The notes under the pieces are model-generated. The model was not told the origin of the DNA, searched no databases, and saw nothing but the letters and a program-made list of their open reading frames with translations. Positions 10,573 through 36,272 of a DNA stretch of 64,000 nucleotides are shown here, piece by piece (the stretch's first letter is position 1; each line of letters starts with the position of its first letter). A program made the position numbers and the translations under genes. Source of the DNA: Myxococcota bacterium (GTDB lineage Bacteria; Myxococcota_A; UBA9160; UBA6930); assembly GCA_965223705.1 (NCBI GenBank), contig OZ245015.1, positions 4,384,001 to 4,448,000 of the forward strand. Reading direction: 5' to 3'.

Positions 10573-12228
10573 CTAGCAGCACCCCGAGGAGCACGATGCC
10601 GCGCTCGGTCGGTACGAGCGCTCGGACACTCCGGAAGAGCCGCCCAACTCGCTCGCCGTCGGAGCGCTTGCTGTCGCAGTGCTCGCGCGCTTTCCGTGGC
10701 CCGCCGTCTCGACGCCTCGCGTCGCGATGTGGAAGTCACTGTCGCCGACCGAAAAGTCGATTTCGATAGCGTCATCGCCTACCGAACGCCAACGGGGGTA
10801 GGGTTCATCCTCACAGAAAACCCGAACGTTACGAGCCGACGCCAGCTGAGTCACGCGGAACGAGGAATCGCTTCCGCGTTTTGAAGGCGTCGCCGCATAC
10901 GTGGTCACGTGAAGCTCGCCAGTCTCGTGTTCGTTCCACGCGCGAGAAATACCGACGGTCGGATAGTCGACTCCCTCGAGCGTGGGCTCCTGGAACCGAC
11001 GCGCATGGTCTGGATTGTTGAAGACCCGCCGCCAGGAGCCCGGTTCGCCCGCTTCACTGAGCATCAGAAGAGAAGCGAGCTGTCCGCGGGGCCAGTCTTC
11101 TCCCGTTCCGAACCAGTACCCGAAGCGGGAATTGTCCTCCCCGAACTGACGCGGTTCCGAAATTCGATCGATGCACTCGGCCAAGCGTTTCTCAGTGGTG
11201 TCGTCGCCCACTTCTCGTGCGACAAGATGGCCGATTACCAGCAAGCGCGGGTCGAGCGATGCGAGCACCGGCTTGGCCGGATCACTCCAACCCACCAAGC
11301 GCGCGCCTTCTCGGTACAGAAACTCACCGAACTCCGGGTGTTGCGGCAACACGTAGGGTGTGATCAGCAAAGCGGCGAGCCCGGAGGCCTGCCCTGGGAA
11401 CTGGCAGAGAACTTCTTCGAGGGGGTCGTAGTAGAGCGGAAAAGAAGCGAGCCCACCCTTCGAATCGAGCTTCAGGTAATGCGCCTTTGCGAACTCGACC
11501 CAATCGTCGTAGACACCGTGGAAAGCATTGCCCGAAACCTGATCGTAGAGTTTGAGACCCAACCCGGCCGACGAGACACAGGCGGGCCAGATCTTCGTGT
11601 TCTCGCAGTGCGGCCCCTGCGGTCGATCCTTCCACTGCGCGTTCAAGAACTCGGCGATCCGATAGTGCGTCCACTCGAAGGTCTGCTCGCGATAACCGGC
11701 GACCCGAAACGGCGCTTCCCATTTTTCATCGCCCGCGACGTAGCGGTAGATCGACAACAGCAGGTTGAACCAACCGCGAAAGAACAGGTTTCCGTCGGAG
11801 CCGATGGGGTCGGGCTGAAGCCCCCACGGTTCGACGCCGTTGCCCGTCCAGCCGGGCGGGTCGTACCGGCCCTGCAAGTGCGGGGGTAGGTACGCCAACC
11901 ACTCCGGCGGGTAGTCGGCTTGATGCGGGTCGTGACCGATCAACGTGAGCCAATCAACGGCGGCCCAGAAACTCGTGTGCCGGCCGACCAGCTCGTCGGC
12001 GATTCGGGTGTACACCTCGCGCCACGCGGGCGTTCGATCGGCGAGGACGGGAAGGATGTAGCTCGTCTCCGCGAGATCGAAGCGCGGGAAGCTGCACATC
12101 GGCGCCGTGCTCGTCTGATCCCACCAAGGATGAGGCGAACCCTCGGTCGACCAATCGTCTTCCGTTGTCGCTTTGTCCCATAGAAAGCGGAGCCAGCCCT
12201 GAACGCGAGGCGCGATCGCTTCGACCAT
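10573..12228 (-). CDS. Linalool dehydratase/isomerase-like protein with C-terminal extension
   Basis: DPIGSDGNLFFRGWFNLLLSIYRYVAG and CENTKIWPAC align with the LinD motifs [26 protein letters not shown] and CEPDNYFVQC (recalled from memory); ATG overlaps the upstream TGA. Confidence 0.72.
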   Translation of the reverse strand: MVEAIAPRVQGWLRFLWDKATTEDDWSTEGSPHPWWDQTSTAPMCSFPRFDLAETSYILPVLADRTPAWREVYTRIADELVGRHTSFWAAVDWLTLIGHDPHQADYPPEWLAYLPPHLQGRYDPPGWTGNGVEPWGLQPDPIGSDGNLFFRGWFNLLLSIYRYVAGDEKWEAPFRVAGYREQTFEWTHYRIAEFLNAQWKDRPQGPHCENTKIWPACVSSAGLGLKLYDQVSGNAFHGVYDDWVEFAKAHYLKLDSKGGLASFPLYYDPLEEVLCQFPGQASGLAALLITPYVLPQHPEFGEFLYREGARLVGWSDPAKPVLASLDPRLLVIGHLVAREVGDDTTEKRLAECIDRISEPRQFGEDNSRFGYWFGTGEDWPRGQLASLLMLSEAGEPGSWRRVFNNPDHARRFQEPTLEGVDYPTVGISRAWNEHETGELHVTTYAATPSKRGSDSSFRVTQLASARNVRVFCEDEPYPRWRSVGDDAIEIDFSVGDSDFHIATRGVETAGHGKRASTATASAPTASELGGSSGVSERSYRPSAASCSSGCC

Positions 12229-12788
12229 CAATACTCCGGTGCCCGCTGACCCGCGGCGACCCGAATCAACAAGAGCTTCGCTCGTTGCCGAGCCGCCGCC
12301 GACCAATTCGGATCGAGATCCGCCGCTGCCGCTTCTCGCGTGATCGACCGCGCAGCTTCGATGTCGTCACGCGGCCGGACGTACGCGCCGGGAAAGCGAT
12401 CCGGCTGCCGACGAAGCCGGGCCAACGGATTGGCCGCATCGATTCTCCCGAGGAACCACACGAAGAGCATCAGGTTGCCGTCGAGCCGGGCTGCTTTTCG
12501 CGACATCCCGTCGAGCAAGCGCTCGATGCCCTTCGAGGAGAGAAGAACCGCGAGCGCGTCGGAAGACGTTTTGAACCAGAGCCGCAAATCGGAATCGGAA
12601 GCGGCCCCCGACTCCGACACCATGGCCCGCGACACACTGCGGAACTGGCGAGCCACGCCGTCGTCTGTCTCGATCGTCACAGTCCGATCGGCGGAGAGCG
12701 CCGCGCGAAACGCGGGGCGGCTGCGACTCGCGTGCGTCAACAGCGCCCCGAGGGCGAAGAGCAGCGATCTGAGGACGAGACGGGCCAT
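12228..12788 (-). CDS. SCP2/sterol-carrier-like domain protein
   Basis: 'VTIETDDGVARQF...SDLRLWFK...ARLDGNLMLFVWF' pattern typical of SCP2-like folds. Confidence 0.5.
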   Translation of the reverse strand: MARLVLRSLLFALGALLTHASRSRPAFRAALSADRTVTIETDDGVARQFRSVSRAMVSESGAASDSDLRLWFKTSSDALAVLLSSKGIERLLDGMSRKAARLDGNLMLFVWFLGRIDAANPLARLRRQPDRFPGAYVRPRDDIEAARSITREAAAADLDPNWSAAARQRAKLLLIRVAAGQRAPEY

Positions 12789-12821: not shown

Positions 12822-13604
12822 TCACCCCATCAACCCGGGGTTCGCGCCACCGTCGATGGTGATGTTGGCGCCGTGGATAAAAGCGGCTCGAGGCGAAGCG
12901 AGAAACAGGGCGAGATCCGCCACTTCTTTCGGTTCGCCCGCGCGCCCGAGTGGTGTCATATTGCGGAGCGTTTCTTCGCGTGAGCCCCCGCCCGGCGCCA
13001 ACGTGTCGAGAAACAGCAGAAGCCGCTCGGTCAAGATCGGCCCGGGATTGATCCCCACCACGCGGACCGACGCTTCTGCCCCCTCGTCCGCCAGCGCTTT
13101 CGTAAAGTGATTGAGGGCAGCGTTCGCGGCGCCTCCCACCATGTACCCGGCAACCGGCCGCAATCCGCCGGTTCCGATCACATTCACGATCACGCCCCCT
13201 CCCTGTGTCTTCATGATGGGGAGCACGGCTCGCGCCATCCGCATGTAGCCGAAGAACTTGAGCGTCCAATCTTCGAGCCACGCTTCATCGGTAATCTCGA
13301 GAAAGCTTCCAGGTCGTGCGCTGCCGGCGTTGTTAATCAGAATGTCGATGCTACCGAAGCGGTCCCGAACGCTTTCGGCGACCCGGAGAATGTCGGCACC
13401 TTGTGTGAGATCCGCCGCGATACCCAACATGTTGTCGCGACCGCGGCCCGGTGCAGCGGCGATCGTTTCGTCGATCCCCTCCTGCCCGCGGGCGCAAATC
13501 GCGACCGACGCGCCTTCTTCGACGAATCCCCATGCCGTAGCGCGTCCTATTCCTTGACTCCCGCCGGTGACGAGCACCACTTTGCCTTCGAGACCGAGTT
13601 GCAT
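12822..13604 (-). CDS. Short-chain dehydrogenase/reductase
   Basis: TGGSQGIG, NNAG, GINPGPILT, IDGG; AGGAGG RBS. Confidence 0.93.
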   Translation of the reverse strand: MQLGLEGKVVLVTGGSQGIGRATAWGFVEEGASVAICARGQEGIDETIAAAPGRGRDNMLGIAADLTQGADILRVAESVRDRFGSIDILINNAGSARPGSFLEITDEAWLEDWTLKFFGYMRMARAVLPIMKTQGGGVIVNVIGTGGLRPVAGYMVGGAANAALNHFTKALADEGAEASVRVVGINPGPILTERLLLFLDTLAPGGGSREETLRNMTPLGRAGEPKEVADLALFLASPRAAFIHGANITIDGGANPGLMG

Positions 13605-13670
13605 ACGTCCTCCTAAACGCTCGCGCCCCACCGCGCGCTATGCTTTAACGCAGCGACCAGGGAGATCACA

Positions 13671-14183
13671 ATGCCGCTCCGATTCGCCGAAGGCGACGTT
13701 TTTCCCGAATTCGAACTCGAGGATCACCGAGGTCAAAAGATCACGTGCGATTCCCTGATGGATGGCAAGCCGACGATCCTCGTTTTCTTCCGCGGCCCTT
13801 GGTGACCCAAGTGACAGGTCCAACTGCAGGAACTGGTCGAGTTCCACCGTCGCACCGCTGTCGCCTACTGCCAAATCGCCGCTATCTCGGTCGATCCGCC
13901 CCGAGTTTTAGAAGCGTTTCGCGCCGGCCTGGGCGCGCCTTTCACGTTCCTGTCGGATCAAGAGCTCACGCTTACCGACGCCCTCGGGATTCGCGAAACC
14001 ACGGATCAACGCCACGGGCCTCTGCCCGTCCCGATGACCTTTGCCCTGCTGCCAGACCGACAAATTCATCGGGTCTTCAACGGTTGGTATTTCGTCGGGC
14101 GCCCGACTCCTGAGGAACTCCGCCAGACGATTCGTCAGCTGGTGGATGCAACGGTTTCTGATCTGGATTTTCGAGGCGACTAG
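13671..14183 (+). CDS. Peroxiredoxin-like (AhpC/TSA/redoxin) selenoprotein with UxxU motif (Sec at codons 45 and 48)
   Basis: GGAG RBS and ATG at 13671; MPLRFAEGDVFPEFELEDHRG...TILVFFRGPW*PK*QVQLQEL...AISVD...FTFLSD...PMTFAL...NGWYFVGRPTPEELR; both TGA (13803, 13812) sit at the CxxC positions; hairpin GGAACT-GGTCG-AGTTCC downstream. Confidence 0.85.
13829..13845 (+). promoter_or_regulatory. Candidate bacterial SECIS hairpin
   Basis: 6-bp stem GGAACT/AGTTCC; loop GGTCG begins with G, 20 nt after the second UGA and 29 nt after the first. Confidence 0.6.
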
Positions 14184-14215
14184 TTCGCCCGTTCCGAACG
14201 CAACGAGGAGCTCTC

Positions 14216-14632
14216 ATGGCGAATCGATCGATGACGGGGAGATGTCTATGCGGCGCTGTGACGTTCTCAGCCGAAGACGTCGAGCCGCATATTCACGCGT
14301 GCCACTGTGGCATGTGCCGACGCTGGTCCGGCGGTCCGGGCATGGCCGTCTCGGTGGGTTCGATCTCCTTCACCGGCGCAGACGAGCTCAGAACCTACGA
14401 CTCGTCGGAATGGGCGGAGCGCGGATTCTGCGGCGTGTGTGGCAGCAACCTCTTCTACAGGCTGAAAGAACAGGATCGGTACGTGGTTTGGAACGGCGCG
14501 CTGGATGATCCGACAGACTTTGAGCTCACCGGCGAGATCTACATCGATGAAAAACCGAGCTCCTACGATTTCGCCGGAGACCACCCGCGTCTCACCGGGC
14601 AAGAATTCTTGAAATCGGTGGGCATGGCCTGA
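14216..14632 (+). CDS. GFA family (Mss4-like, Zn-binding) protein
   Basis: GRCLCGAV, HACHCGMCRR, RGFCGVCGSNLF. Confidence 0.9.
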   Translation: MANRSMTGRCLCGAVTFSAEDVEPHIHACHCGMCRRWSGGPGMAVSVGSISFTGADELRTYDSSEWAERGFCGVCGSNLFYRLKEQDRYVVWNGALDDPTDFELTGEIYIDEKPSSYDFAGDHPRLTGQEFLKSVGMA

Positions 14633-14680
14633 CTCGACGCTGGTAGCACCCAGTAGCAGACTCCGAGTACCTTCCTCGCC

Positions 14681-16981
14681 ATGAAAAGCAGCGCCCTCGT
14701 CACGCACTGGGGTCCGTTCGTCGTGGAAGCCGACGGAGACCGCGTCGTCTCGGTCCGCGGGCACGCTTCGGATCCCGACCCGTCGCCGATCGGTCAGTCT
14801 CTTCAACAAGCGACGGATTGCCGCGTCGAACGGCCGTCGATCCGACGCTCTTGGCTCGAAGACGGGCCCGGCGCGCGCACGGAACTACGCGGACGCGAGC
14901 CCTTTGTCGAGGTCAGCTGGAACGAGGCACTCGATCTCGTCGCGGGCGAGCTCGCGAGAGTTCGCGACGTCTACGGCCATACGTCGATCTACGGGGGGTC
15001 CTACGGCTGGTCGTCCGCGGGCCGCTTCCACATGTCCTCGGGCCAGATCACGCGTTTCTTCCGCATGTTCGGTGGCTGCACCGATGCGTGGGGGACGTAC
15101 TCTTCGTCCGCCGCGTCGGGGATCATTCCGTATGTCTTGGGGATCTCGTACCTGCAGGGCGTCGCCCAGCAGAGCTCGTGGTCGACGATTGCGGAGCACA
15201 CGGATCTCTTCGTGAGCTTCGGTGGATTGCGACTCACGAACACGCACGTGACGTACGGTGGCCAGGGACCCCATCACACGCGTGAATGGCTCATGCGTGC
15301 GCGCGATTCCGGTGTTTCGTTTCTCAACATCGGCCCGTTGCGGGACGATTTCGAGCCCGACCTCGGCGCGCGGTGGGTCCATCCGATCCCCGGCACGGAC
15401 GTCGCACTCATGGCGGCGCTTATTCACGCGTTGGTCGACGAGGGTCTCGCCGACCGCGCGTTTCTTCTCCGCCATTGCGTCGGCTGGGAACGTCTCGAGG
15501 CCTACATCCTGGGCACAACCGATGGAACGGCGAAAACCGCCGAATGGGCAGCAGCGATTACGGGGCTCGAAGCCGACGCGATTCGCGAGCTCGCACACGA
15601 AATGGCGAGCCGTCGGACGCTGATCAACCTCACCCTCGCCGTGCAGCGACAGGACCACGGGGAACAGAGCTATTGGATGGGCATCGCACTGGCCGCGGCT
15701 CTCGGCCAGGTCGGGCTCTCGGGCGGTGGGGTTGCGTTCACTTTCGGCGCCGCTGGCAATGTCGGAGCGGGTCAGACCCGCGCACGCGTGCCGGGGCTCC
15801 CGGTGCCCAAACCGGTTCCCGACATGACGACGATTTCGGTATCGCGCGTGGCGGAACTTCTGGAAGCGAATGGTGAGACCTTCCGCTGGAACGGTCGAGA
15901 AGACGTCTACCCGGACACCCGCCTCGTGTACTGGTGCGGCGGAAACGTGTTCCATCACCACCAAGATCTGAACCGCCTCCTTCGAGCGTGGCAACGCCCC
16001 GAGACGATCGTCGTTCACGAACCGTTCTGGACGCCCACCGCGAAACGCGCCGACGTCGTCTTCCCTGCGACGACGCCGCTCGAGCGCAGTGACCTCGGAG
16101 GTGGCGAAACCTTGCTGGCGCTGTCGCAACCCGTGCTCGAGCCGTATGGCGAAGCGCGTGACGACTACGCGATTTTTCACGGCCTCGCCGACCGGCTGGG
16201 TTTCGGAGAAACGTTCTCCGAAGGGCGGACCGCCGAAGAGTGGGTACGCCACCTCTACGAAGAATTTCGCAGCAACAACGAAGCCGCTCCGCCTCTCGAG
16301 CTGGCGCGCGAACAAGGCACGTTGCAGCACCGACATATGGCGCGGATGGGGGAGCCCTCACAGACCTTCCTCTCCGCCTTCCGCGCCGACCCGATCGCGA
16401 ACCCGCTCCCCACGCCGTCGGGTCGGATCGAGCTCTATTCCGAGACGATCGCCGGCTTCGGTTACGCCGATTGTCCCGGGCACCCCATCTGGCTTGAACC
16501 CTACGAACGGTTGGGTACGCCCGCCGCGGAACGTTTCCCGCTCCACCTGATCTCCAACCAACCAGCCGGGAGGTTGCACGGCCAGTACGACCACGGCGAG
16601 GTCAGCCAAGCGACGAAGGTCGCGGGCCGCGAGCCATGCCGCCTCCACCCGGATGACGCCGGTGCCCGCGGCATTCGAGACGGCGACGTCGTTCGTCTGT
16701 GGAACGACCGCGGCGCCTGCCTTGCCGGAGCGGTGCTGTCCGATGCTTTGATGCCAGGCGTTGTGCAGCTCAGTACCGGCGCGTGGTTTGACCCCGATGA
16801 GACAGGGCTTTGCAAACACGGAAACCCCAACGTTCTGACGCGCGACAAGGGCACCTCAAAGCTTTCTGAAGGCCCGAGCGCGCACACGTGCCTTGTGGAG
16901 GTCGAGCGTTTCGACGGCGACGTCCCGGCTGTGACGGCGTTCGATCCGCCCGCGTTTGCGAAGCGTTCCGCCCGACCGTGA
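14681..16981 (+). CDS. Cytoplasmic molybdopterin S/N-oxide reductase (BisC/DMSO reductase family)
   Basis: THWGPF, GGSYGWSSAGRFH, GTYS (Ser ligand), YWCGGNVFHHHQDLN, GAWFDP, HGNPNVLT; no Tat signal. Confidence 0.9.
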   Translation: MKSSALVTHWGPFVVEADGDRVVSVRGHASDPDPSPIGQSLQQATDCRVERPSIRRSWLEDGPGARTELRGREPFVEVSWNEALDLVAGELARVRDVYGHTSIYGGSYGWSSAGRFHMSSGQITRFFRMFGGCTDAWGTYSSSAASGIIPYVLGISYLQGVAQQSSWSTIAEHTDLFVSFGGLRLTNTHVTYGGQGPHHTREWLMRARDSGVSFLNIGPLRDDFEPDLGARWVHPIPGTDVALMAALIHALVDEGLADRAFLLRHCVGWERLEAYILGTTDGTAKTAEWAAAITGLEADAIRELAHEMASRRTLINLTLAVQRQDHGEQSYWMGIALAAALGQVGLSGGGVAFTFGAAGNVGAGQTRARVPGLPVPKPVPDMTTISVSRVAELLEANGETFRWNGREDVYPDTRLVYWCGGNVFHHHQDLNRLLRAWQRPETIVVHEPFWTPTAKRADVVFPATTPLERSDLGGGETLLALSQPVLEPYGEARDDYAIFHGLADRLGFGETFSEGRTAEEWVRHLYEEFRSNNEAAPPLELAREQGTLQHRHMARMGEPSQTFLSAFRADPIANPLPTPSGRIELYSETIAGFGYADCPGHPIWLEPYERLGTPAAERFPLHLISNQPAGRLHGQYDHGEVSQATKVAGREPCRLHPDDAGARGIRDGDVVRLWNDRGACLAGAVLSDALMPGVVQLSTGAWFDPDETGLCKHGNPNVLTRDKGTSKLSEGPSAHTCLVEVERFDGDVPAVTAFDPPAFAKRSARP

Positions 16982-35147: not shown

Positions 35148-36272
35148 ATGTCCTCGGACACACCGCGAAGCGCGTTCGAACCGCCGCTCTTGCGAACCCA
35201 GGCGTTCTGCCGAGTCCTGAAAGACGCGGACTTCGCCGTCACCCACACGCGGTTTGTCGATGCTTGCCGAGCCATTGGCGAAATCGAGTGGAACAACGAG
35301 GAAGATTTCCGCGTTGCCCTGCGCACGAACCTCGTCAACAGCCGCGAACAAGAAATCGTGTTCGACCGCCTCTTCGATGCGTTTTGGCGCGAACAACCCG
35401 AGGACGAAACGCCGGAACGCGCGCTCCCCCTGCGCCCCGAGCCCGTCCAGGGACGGCTCCAAGACGGTTGGAAAGAAACGCACCGCGACTTGCTCTCGGA
35501 CACGGATCATTTCAGTCCTGACGAGATGATGCGCGATCTGAACCTGGCGCTTCGTTGGGACGAGCAAGGCATGCCGCTCGAAGCGATCGTCCGGGCGCTC
35601 GCGAAGAAGCTCTCGACCCGACCGAGCCGGCGACGCGTGCCGGCGACGGGCGGCGAACGCATCGACTTGCGCCGTACCTTGCGTCACTTCGCCCGAACCG
35701 GCGCCGAATGGGCGCCCCTCTGTCGCTCCGATCGCCGCGTACGCAAGACGCGTCTCGTGCTCTTGTGCGACGTCAGTGGATCGATGGACGCGTACAACCC
35801 GTTTCTCTTGCGGTTGATGCTGTCTCTCCAAAAAGAGTTGCCCGGGTCGCGGACGGTCGTGTTCAGCACTCGGGTCACCGAGATCACACAGCTCCTACGG
35901 CGGCGAAGTGCGGTCGACACACTGCGAGAGGTCTCTCGTTCCGTGCGTCACTGGTCGGGTGGAACCGACATCGGAAAGGGCCTCGCCATGTTGAACCGGG
36001 GGATCCTCCGGGAAGGAAAGGCGCGGTCGACGGTCGCCATCGTCATCAGCGACGGCTACGACCAGGGCGACCCGGACGTGATCCGCGAGGAGTTACAGAC
36101 GTTGAAACGGCGCGTTCGAAGCCTTGTCTGGATCAACCCCATGTACGGAAGCATGAGTTACGAACCGACGGCGACCGGCATGCGCGCGGCGATGCCCTTC
36201 GTCGACCATTTCCTGCCCGCATGGGACGCCGCCTCGCTTCGAACTCTCGTGCGCGAGCTCGGAACGGTCTAG
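35148..36272 (+). CDS. VWA-domain CoxE-like protein
   Basis: LCDVSGSMDAY (MIDAS), FSTRVT, WSGGTDIG, ISDGYDQGD, WINP. Confidence 0.88.
   Translation: MSSDTPRSAFEPPLLRTQAFCRVLKDADFAVTHTRFVDACRAIGEIEWNNEEDFRVALRTNLVNSREQEIVFDRLFDAFWREQPEDETPERALPLRPEPVQGRLQDGWKETHRDLLSDTDHFSPDEMMRDLNLALRWDEQGMPLEAIVRALAKKLSTRPSRRRVPATGGERIDLRRTLRHFARTGAEWAPLCRSDRRVRKTRLVLLCDVSGSMDAYNPFLLRLMLSLQKELPGSRTVVFSTRVTEITQLLRRRSAVDTLREVSRSVRHWSGGTDIGKGLAMLNRGILREGKARSTVAIVISDGYDQGDPDVIREELQTLKRRVRSLVWINPMYGSMSYEPTATGMRAAMPFVDHFLPAWDAASLRTLVRELGTV

Follow-up and report, generated by a model that had tools for sequence, protein, structure and literature searches.

The window analysed here is a stretch of 64,000 nucleotides from a bacterium of the Myxococcota (contig OZ245015.1). 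At positions 13671-14183 of its forward strand, ORF calling leaves a gap for which an earlier note had described a continuous redoxin reading frame with a ribosome binding site, interrupted solely by two in-frame TGA codons. This description was borne out. When TGA was translated as selenocysteine (Sec, U), a frame of 170 codons was obtained, which ends with a TAG stop codon at 14181-14183 and is preceded by the Shine-Dalgarno-like sequence GGGAG at 13660-13664, ending 6 nt upstream of the ATG; GGAG- or GGAGG-like words are found upstream of most relatives as well. According to Pfam and structure prediction the product is a thioredoxin-fold protein of the AhpC/TSA and redoxin type, and its match to Pfam AhpC-TSA (76.5 bits against a PF00578 cut-off of 26) extends over residues 8-132 and spans both TGA codons.

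The first of these codons (UGA 1, 13803-13805) encodes the putative Sec45 at the first, nucleophilic position of a CxxC-type motif, at which nearly every relative read has TGA or Cys. The second (UGA 2, 13812-13814) encodes the putative Sec48 at the second motif position, where Cys is present in UxxC sisters and Asp or Glu across the wider family. With TGA read as Sec, the motif context is F-F-R-G-P-W-U-P-K-U-Q-V-Q. Under genetic code table 11 only pieces of 44 and 49 amino acids are called from the frame, because the first in-frame start codon downstream of both TGA codons is M122 and there is none between codons 49 and 121; the gene had thus been missed by ORF calling, as the earlier note had stated. 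The sequence was identical in the contigs of two public runs, which probably derive from the same source DNA, and a 281-nt contig from a separate study, covering both TGA codons, differed at 17 positions in all, none of them listed at the TGA codons. No RNA data set was listed among the public holders of the sequence. The locus is almost certainly a real gene.

A divergently oriented short-chain dehydrogenase gene is located upstream and a gene of the GFA family downstream, with the next gene starting 32 nt past the stop codon. A promoter scan of positions 13300-14800 returned no sites. Elsewhere in the window, a distant linalool dehydratase/isomerase-like gene (Pfam Ldi) with a Cys-rich tail was seen at 10573-12788 on the reverse strand, adjoining a small unannotated gene.

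Selenocysteine machinery and the reading of TGA in the host genome

The presence of selABCD had been named as a check, and it was answered positively: in the genome of the organism itself (95% complete), selA, selB and selD were detected above curated cut-offs together with a tRNA-Sec(UCA). Among other genomes carrying the gene, selB was found in five of five and selA in five of five tested (one genome being common to both sets). A strong tRNA-Sec match was obtained in three of five other carriers and two such matches in none, the remaining two genomes being 87% and 73% complete. With ARAGORN at its normal threshold, one tRNA-Sec, one tRNA-Cys and one tRNA-Trp (CCA) were called in the host genome, and one copy of cysS scored above its cut-off. 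A genetic code in which TGA specifies Trp was ruled out, since 718 of 1861 long coding-like ORFs terminate at TGA and the tRNA-Trp has the anticodon CCA.

Due to the warning in the accessible part of PMC13582414 that SelC*/tRNA-ReC may read such UGA codons as Cys, these tRNAs were sought in the host genome. With relaxed ARAGORN settings, all 11 re-examined UCA or GCA calls were flagged as possible pseudogenes, by models which could miss an unusual tRNA. An odd call in the window with the 4-base anticodon ttca (35161-35253, reverse strand) is probably false in view of its pseudogene flag, a stop-free frame and no Rfam match. A reading in which Cys is inserted at one UGA, with the distant UGA 1 as the likeliest candidate, by SelC*/tRNA-ReC or by near-cognate readthrough would yield a CxxU or UxxC protein and no diselenide. 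It draws on the report, in the same accessible text of PMC13582414, that about 56% of the genomes encoding UXXU hydrogenases have tRNA-ReC, on the warning given there that Cys may be inserted at either UGA, and on the atypical spacing of UGA 1 described below. Against it stand the single tRNA-Sec, tRNA-Cys and cysS of the host, where a tRNA-ReC could be missed in a genome of 95% completeness, and the lack of a second strong tRNA-Sec match in each of the five other carriers. Furthermore, TGA is kept in 17 of 17 sequence contexts instead of reverting to TGY, which argues for Sec. Decoding of one codon as Cys is consequently regarded as improbable, and both in-frame TGA codons very probably encode Sec.

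The host genome is rich in selenoprotein genes. At least 25 further single-Sec candidates were seen (loci L090-L113 and L115), 23 of which have a Pfam family; they comprise nine CMD/AhpD-like proteins with CxxU, three TxxU peroxiredoxins, three UGSC proteins, three PrdB/GrdB-like proteins and five redoxins. One of the loci, L113 (G000:C1:1887151-1887840, reverse strand), encodes a rhodanese domain in which an in-frame TGA occupies the column of the active-site Cys, with a G-loop hairpin at a distance of 24 nt. The frame continues into a stretch resembling a class III nucleotide cyclase (no Pfam match on the partial sequence), and the locus may possibly represent a Sec-rhodanese sensor fusion. 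In a genome-wide search for further UxxU genes, no candidate other than 13671-14183 passed the coding-score filter, which can miss short or atypical genes.

Relatives, motif variation and selection

A protein search returned 261 matches, and in all 120 of the 120 matches listed the alignment starts no earlier than query position 50, past the second TGA; 44-aa N-terminal pieces also exist in public records. At the DNA level, W-TGA-P-K-TGA was present in six of six genome loci and ten of ten metagenome loci with at least 60% identity and coverage of the motif, two more close loci being left out of this count of 16 for absence of the motif region. At E 1e-35 the family profile matched 12 of 225 genomes of the same class: eight with two TGA codons (that of the window included), two with C-P-K-D, one with a stop-free frame and unread motif, and one truncated at the end of its contig. 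Neither TAA nor TAG is ever present at the two motif codons of the close relatives read.

Relatives of 42-52% identity have UxxC forms (W-U-P-K-C, W-U-G-K-C and W-U-A-K-C) and CxxE forms, and a pattern census of 149 further cluster representatives gave 58 CxxE, 42 CxxD, six CxxC and 11 other motifs, with 32 motifs unreadable. No CxxU form was seen among the relatives read. Homologues had been expected to carry Cys or Sec at codons 45 and 48, and the outcome of this check speaks for the gene: position 45 is nearly always Cys or Sec where readable, and position 48 ranges over Sec, Cys, Asp and Glu. In a tree of 47 rows, the UxxU proteins were split from the UxxC sisters and the CxxD/CxxE proteins with a support of 96 out of 100. 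Long outgroup branches left the root unplaced, and for this reason no order of evolutionary events is claimed.

No conserved gene neighbourhood emerged from a set of 33 flanking ORFs chosen at 14 loci. Neighbours are common to close relatives only, and the downstream gene is different in nearly every relative examined, so that gene context lends no support to any particular substrate.

Several groups of relatives were observed in the course of the comparison. A large single-Cys CxxD/CxxE redoxin family has a conserved C-terminal aromatic GRPT motif (P0122-P0270; L063, L064, L067, L069, L070, L120 and L121). In five CxxD relatives (P0123, P0126, P0141, P0146 and P0152) a cold-shock domain is fused to the C-terminus, which may point to a connection with RNA binding or redox regulation. 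In the UxxC redoxins L027 and L072-L077 the reading frame stays open into a longer C-terminal region that may be a sensory domain, and in L030 (4001-4451), a redoxin homologue of the W-U-P-F-C type, the frame is apparently shifted near the motif in that assembly.

For the selection test, which had been proposed for the part downstream of the TGA codons, 13 gap-free full-length UxxU genes with 60-97% amino-acid identity were used and all pairs were pooled, these being non-independent. The pooled pN/pS was 0.46 before UGA 1 and 0.27 after UGA 2, at a pooled pS of 0.68 upstream and 0.71 downstream of the motif region, i.e. near saturation. In six close pairs, the downstream pS was 0.04-0.44 versus a pN of 0.01-0.09. 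These values indicate purifying selection on both sides of the TGA codons, including the downstream part for which it had been expected. Across codons 49-60, which bear the hairpin described below, pS drops to 0.43, and, apart from the codons for Met, Trp and Sec, the third base is invariant in just three codons, two of which (53 and 58) are located within the hairpin stem.

These data bear on the reading implied by the public gene calls, in which the TGA codons are true stops of a pseudogene or split gene from which a 44-aa peptide and/or a C-terminal fragment is made. TGA is indeed a common stop codon in this genome (718 of the 1861 ORFs), and the public records hold 44-aa pieces and, in 120 of the 120 homologues listed, proteins beginning at position 50 or later. 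This reading is nevertheless hardly credible: no in-frame start codon is present in codons 49-121, TAA and TAG do not appear at the motif codons of the close relatives read, selection is purifying on both sides, the hairpin covaries, and a split would cut the active-site helix.

The candidate SECIS hairpin and its spacing to the two UGA codons

A G-initiated hairpin loop at 20 and 29 nt from the two UGA codons had been noted, and it was located at 13829-13845 as described. The candidate SECIS consists of a 6-bp stem (GGAACU pairing with AGUUCC) and the 5-nt loop GGUCG at 13835-13839 with G in its first position. The loop is located 20 nt downstream of UGA 2 and 29 nt downstream of UGA 1 (20-21 and 29-30 nt across the clade). 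The SECIS model given in the accessible part of PMC13188914, with a loop of 3-9 nt, a stem of 4-16 bp, G in the first two loop positions and a distance of 16-37 nt from the UGA, accommodates the hairpin in these respects at both distances. In E. coli fdhF the upper stem is 11 nt from the UGA, according to the review PMC8659212, in comparison to 23 nt for the hairpin described here, a difference which counts against its use for both UGA codons.

Support for the hairpin comes from conservation and covariation and not from the fold of the single sequence. In single-sequence folding, the stretches had z values of -0.6 to +1.2 versus shuffles. The isolated hairpin was calculated at -6.7 kcal/mol (-3.0 kcal/mol in the relative L026) in comparison to a SECIS criterion of -7.5 kcal/mol or lower, and the region 13815-13870 reached -11.2 kcal/mol, yet was no better than shuffles. 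A G-loop hairpin of equal quality was present at 16-26 nt from 125 of 2000 random genomic TGA trinucleotides. In an alignment of 14 sequences, on the other hand, 84 of 84 cells were paired, with five two-sided changes in two of the six pairs. This pairing was matched by none of 500 shuffles, a control which overstates covariation because the sequences are related, and slid controls were 23-54% paired. All six pairs were held in 17 of 17 distinct contexts, which remained from 26 loci after removal of duplicates and were chosen by motif pattern. The compensatory changes cross codon positions, since a silent change in a Glu codon is paired with a Phe/Leu change.

In order to obtain a set for comparison of the spacing, the host genome was mined for single-Sec genes. 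From 30 hand-picked candidates 25 were kept, while L114 and L116-L119 were left out of the spacing count, being either adjacent genes or frames without coding character; the Pfam families of 23 of the 25 include CMD/AhpD, AhpC-TSA, UGSC and GRDB. With distances of 8-40 nt searched, the best G-loop hairpin was at 16-26 nt in 23 of the 25 (median 20), while of the remaining two one had its hairpin at 11 nt (with a near-equal alternative at 19) and one was without a hairpin. The loop GGUCG is common to four single-Sec candidates and the gene at 13671-14183. The spacing to UGA 2 is therefore typical for the genome, whereas that to UGA 1, at 29-30 nt, exceeds the maximum of 26 nt observed for the 24 single-Sec hairpins, which speaks against the shared hairpin insofar as the distance would be an unusual one for decoding UGA 1.

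A related comparison is provided by the family itself. In the UxxC sisters a different hairpin is present, with its loop 16 nt past the single UGA (three of three examined), and in distant W-U-P-F-C redoxins a near-identical stem word lies 20-21 nt past the UGA (six of six examined). The distance from the motif to the SVDPP sequence is equal in UxxU, UxxC and W-U-P-F-C proteins, and the stem word of the UxxU genes therefore apparently arose at a site shifted by three codons along the helix.

No second conserved hairpin for UGA 1 was found in the 17 contexts or in a scan for lower helices, and in place of a conserved lower stem only stacks of 3-4 bp without consistent compensatory change were detected. 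An upstream helix enclosing both UGA codons, proposed by RNAalifold, was rejected: it has broken pairs, is explained by conserved Trp and Gln codons and would be inside the ribosome while decoding takes place. The use of one hairpin twice is the simplest reading, and the proposal of the earlier note that one SECIS may serve both UGA codons is considered likely. A single SECIS has also been proposed, without experiment, for UXXU hydrogenases in the accessible part of PMC13582414 (2026). The accessible part of PMC1976440 contains nothing on the decoding of two Sec codons.

It is also conceivable that both codons are Sec and that UGA 1 depends on an additional factor or on a second structure of a transient nature, such as a hairpin which buries UGA 2 and has its loop 12 nt past UGA 1, or a longer lower stem by which the loop would come nearer. 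Such a 6-bp hairpin with its loop at 12 nt does form in L021, L022 and L048 (-6.5 to -6.8 kcal/mol), the three innermost of its pairs can form in 15 to 17 of the 17 contexts, and a variable lower stem folds in many sequences. Two of its six pairs, however, hold in just six of the 17 contexts, and the conserved inner pairs are set by conserved Gln and Leu codons and show no two-sided change. A distance of 12 nt is moreover shorter than that of 23 of the 24 best hairpins of the host genome, and the lower-helix scan yielded only the short stacks mentioned above. A separate signal for UGA 1 is rated unlikely, though slightly less so than decoding of one UGA as Cys.

With one shared hairpin, decoding might proceed as follows. 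SelB.GTP.Sec-tRNA would bind the single in-frame hairpin and deliver Sec once UGA 1 has entered the A site, the loop then being at a distance of 29 nt. Three codons later the hairpin would still be outside the ribosome, could be reloaded and would allow delivery of Sec at UGA 2, with the loop at the usual spacing of 20 nt.

Fold, proposed chemistry and kinship of the product

The AlphaFold model, calculated with Cys in place of Sec, shows a thioredoxin fold (pLDDT 90, pTM 0.87) in which the motif follows strand 35-39 and lies where the predicted helix 46-62 begins. The best Foldseek matches were BCP-type peroxiredoxins, ResA and AhpE with 18-23% identity, the top structural matches BcpB and Bcp4 having TM values of 0.78-0.82. 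Alignment to the TxxU peroxiredoxins of the host and to solved BCP structures placed U48 on the column of the peroxidatic Cys and U45 on that of Thr, such that R41-G-P-W-U45-P-K-U48 aligns to P-K-A-D-T-P-G-C; the PxxxT/SxxC motif is absent and Arg41 replaces Pro. Pro121 (14031-14033), invariant in an alignment of 66 rows, occupies the column in which peroxiredoxins have their catalytic Arg and ResA-type proteins a Pro, which we take to be the cis-Pro of the thioredoxin fold.

The protein thus shares its scaffold with the true peroxiredoxins (BCP/PrxQ and AhpE, with TxxU as the Sec form) and is not one of them, because it has no PxxxT and has Pro121 in place of the catalytic Arg. The label "peroxiredoxin-like" given earlier applies to the fold alone. 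From these sequence features the protein is classed as a thiol:disulfide oxidoreductase type on a Prx-like (TlpA/Prx-like) scaffold. The sequence opens directly with the fold and no leader was seen, which suggests a cytoplasmic location.

In thioredoxin chemistry the first motif residue attacks and the second resolves, and diselenides have lower potentials than disulfides. By analogy, Sec45 at the start of helix 1, a position kept as Cys or Sec throughout the family, would be the attacking nucleophile, Sec48 would resolve the mixed intermediate to an intramolecular diselenide, and a low-potential reductant would recycle it. Reduction or exchange of disulfide or selenylsulfide bonds of proteins or small molecules is slightly favoured as the activity. 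Peroxide reduction appears less likely by far, and metal(loid) binding somewhat less likely again.

A regulatory role would also be imaginable, in which two UGA codons tie full-length synthesis steeply to the supply of Sec-tRNA and the protein functions in selenium storage, selenium sensing or metal(loid) binding and not in catalysis. The selenoprotein-rich genome with its 25 single-Sec candidates, the distance of just 32 nt to the next gene and the existence of a catalogued UxxU metal-binding family (NF041115) would suit such a device. Since almost every relative examined has another gene downstream, and the modelled fold, the position of the motif and the invariant Pro would fit a catalytic oxidoreductase, this role is deemed very unlikely.

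With respect to known selenoproteins, the gene belongs to a kind that is rare and has been catalogued before. In their accessible parts, PMC13188914 and PMC9312934 tabulate a Prx-like thiol:disulfide oxidoreductase (PF00578) with UxxC and UxxU motifs, one of them giving 1-2 Sec, and WP_010940744.1 is tabulated as its representative. The gene described here agrees with these entries, as far as they are accessible, in its PF00578 match above the cut-off, Sec at the CxxC positions, an in-frame SECIS and the listed UxxU form, its placement resting on domain and motif. It differs from them in that the W-U-P-K-U proteins have a C-terminal GW-x-x-x-GRPT motif and reach no NCBIfam cut-off, and their nearest non-Sec kin are CxxD/CxxE redoxins and not CxxC proteins. 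The W-U-P-K-U proteins are an unannotated subfamily of this known kind.

SelL contains a UxxU motif and forms a diselenide. The thioredoxin-like fold with two Sec is common to SelL, as described in the accessible part of PMC3473315, and to the present protein, which by sequence comparison is not SelL: the SelL-related model NF040769 gave 41.1 bits against a cut-off of 120 and covered residues 10-111 only. The statement of the earlier note that UxxU is best known from SelL has to be corrected insofar as the motif is not confined there, being tabulated for the PF00578 Prx-like family in the accessible parts of PMC13188914 and PMC9312934. Several UxxU sequences are also reported for the marine bacterial "Prx-like 2" family in the accessible part of PMC2398784 (GOS). 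This family resembles the present one in being Prx-like with some UxxU members; it is, however, defined there by weak likeness to pfam04592, whereas the protein of 13671-14183 is a strong match for PF00578 and PF08534 and PF04592 is absent from its matches at E 0.01. W-U-P-K-U and two C-terminal words of the clade were absent from four GOS supplementary files (PMC2398784), in which 14 W-U-P-K-C sequences occur, and the two of these shown are without the features of the W-U-P-K-U clade.

The closest parallel in decoding is found in the Group 4 [NiFeSe] hydrogenases with UXXU, for which the accessible part of PMC13582414 likewise describes two UGA codons three codons apart and one downstream SECIS proposed for both. 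The hydrogenases are unrelated proteins, and there UXXU and CXXU share one SECIS; the single-Sec sisters of the gene at 13671-14183, in contrast, are UxxC proteins that use another hairpin, located at 16 nt, and CxxU forms were not encountered. In literature on UxxU selenoproteins, on SECIS elements for two UGA codons and on selenoproteomes of Myxococcota, subscription papers being outside the scope, the W-U-P-K-U subfamily was not described.

Taken together, 13671-14183 is likely to be a stand-alone gene for a cytoplasmic thioredoxin-fold oxidoreductase with two Sec residues in a CxxC-type motif and one shared SECIS. For the full model the balance is even: SelB would make successive use of one SECIS at two spacings, 29-30 and 20-21 nt; the hairpin would have been rebuilt three codons downstream in comparison to single-Sec relatives so that it is in register with UGA 2 and leaves UGA 1 beyond the normal reach; and the encoded protein, a cytoplasmic diselenide oxidoreductase, would represent one extreme of a family with Asp, Glu, Cys or Sec as the second motif residue.

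The analysis exposes an annotation error across a whole subfamily, whose database homologues all start past the second TGA in the 120 of 120 cases listed. The gene offers a small soluble test case for the question, raised in 2026 in the accessible part of PMC13582414, whether one bacterial SECIS can direct two UGA codons three codons apart, and a hairpin installing two Sec at once would help the engineering of diselenide proteins. Natural controls exist within the family: the UxxC sisters with the hairpin at 16 nt, the single-Sec redoxins with the near-identical word at 20-21 nt, and the CxxD/CxxE relatives. Proteins of this kind were already known, as was the machinery for recoding. It is the register of the hairpin with UGA 2 and the natural U/C/D/E series which are of interest.
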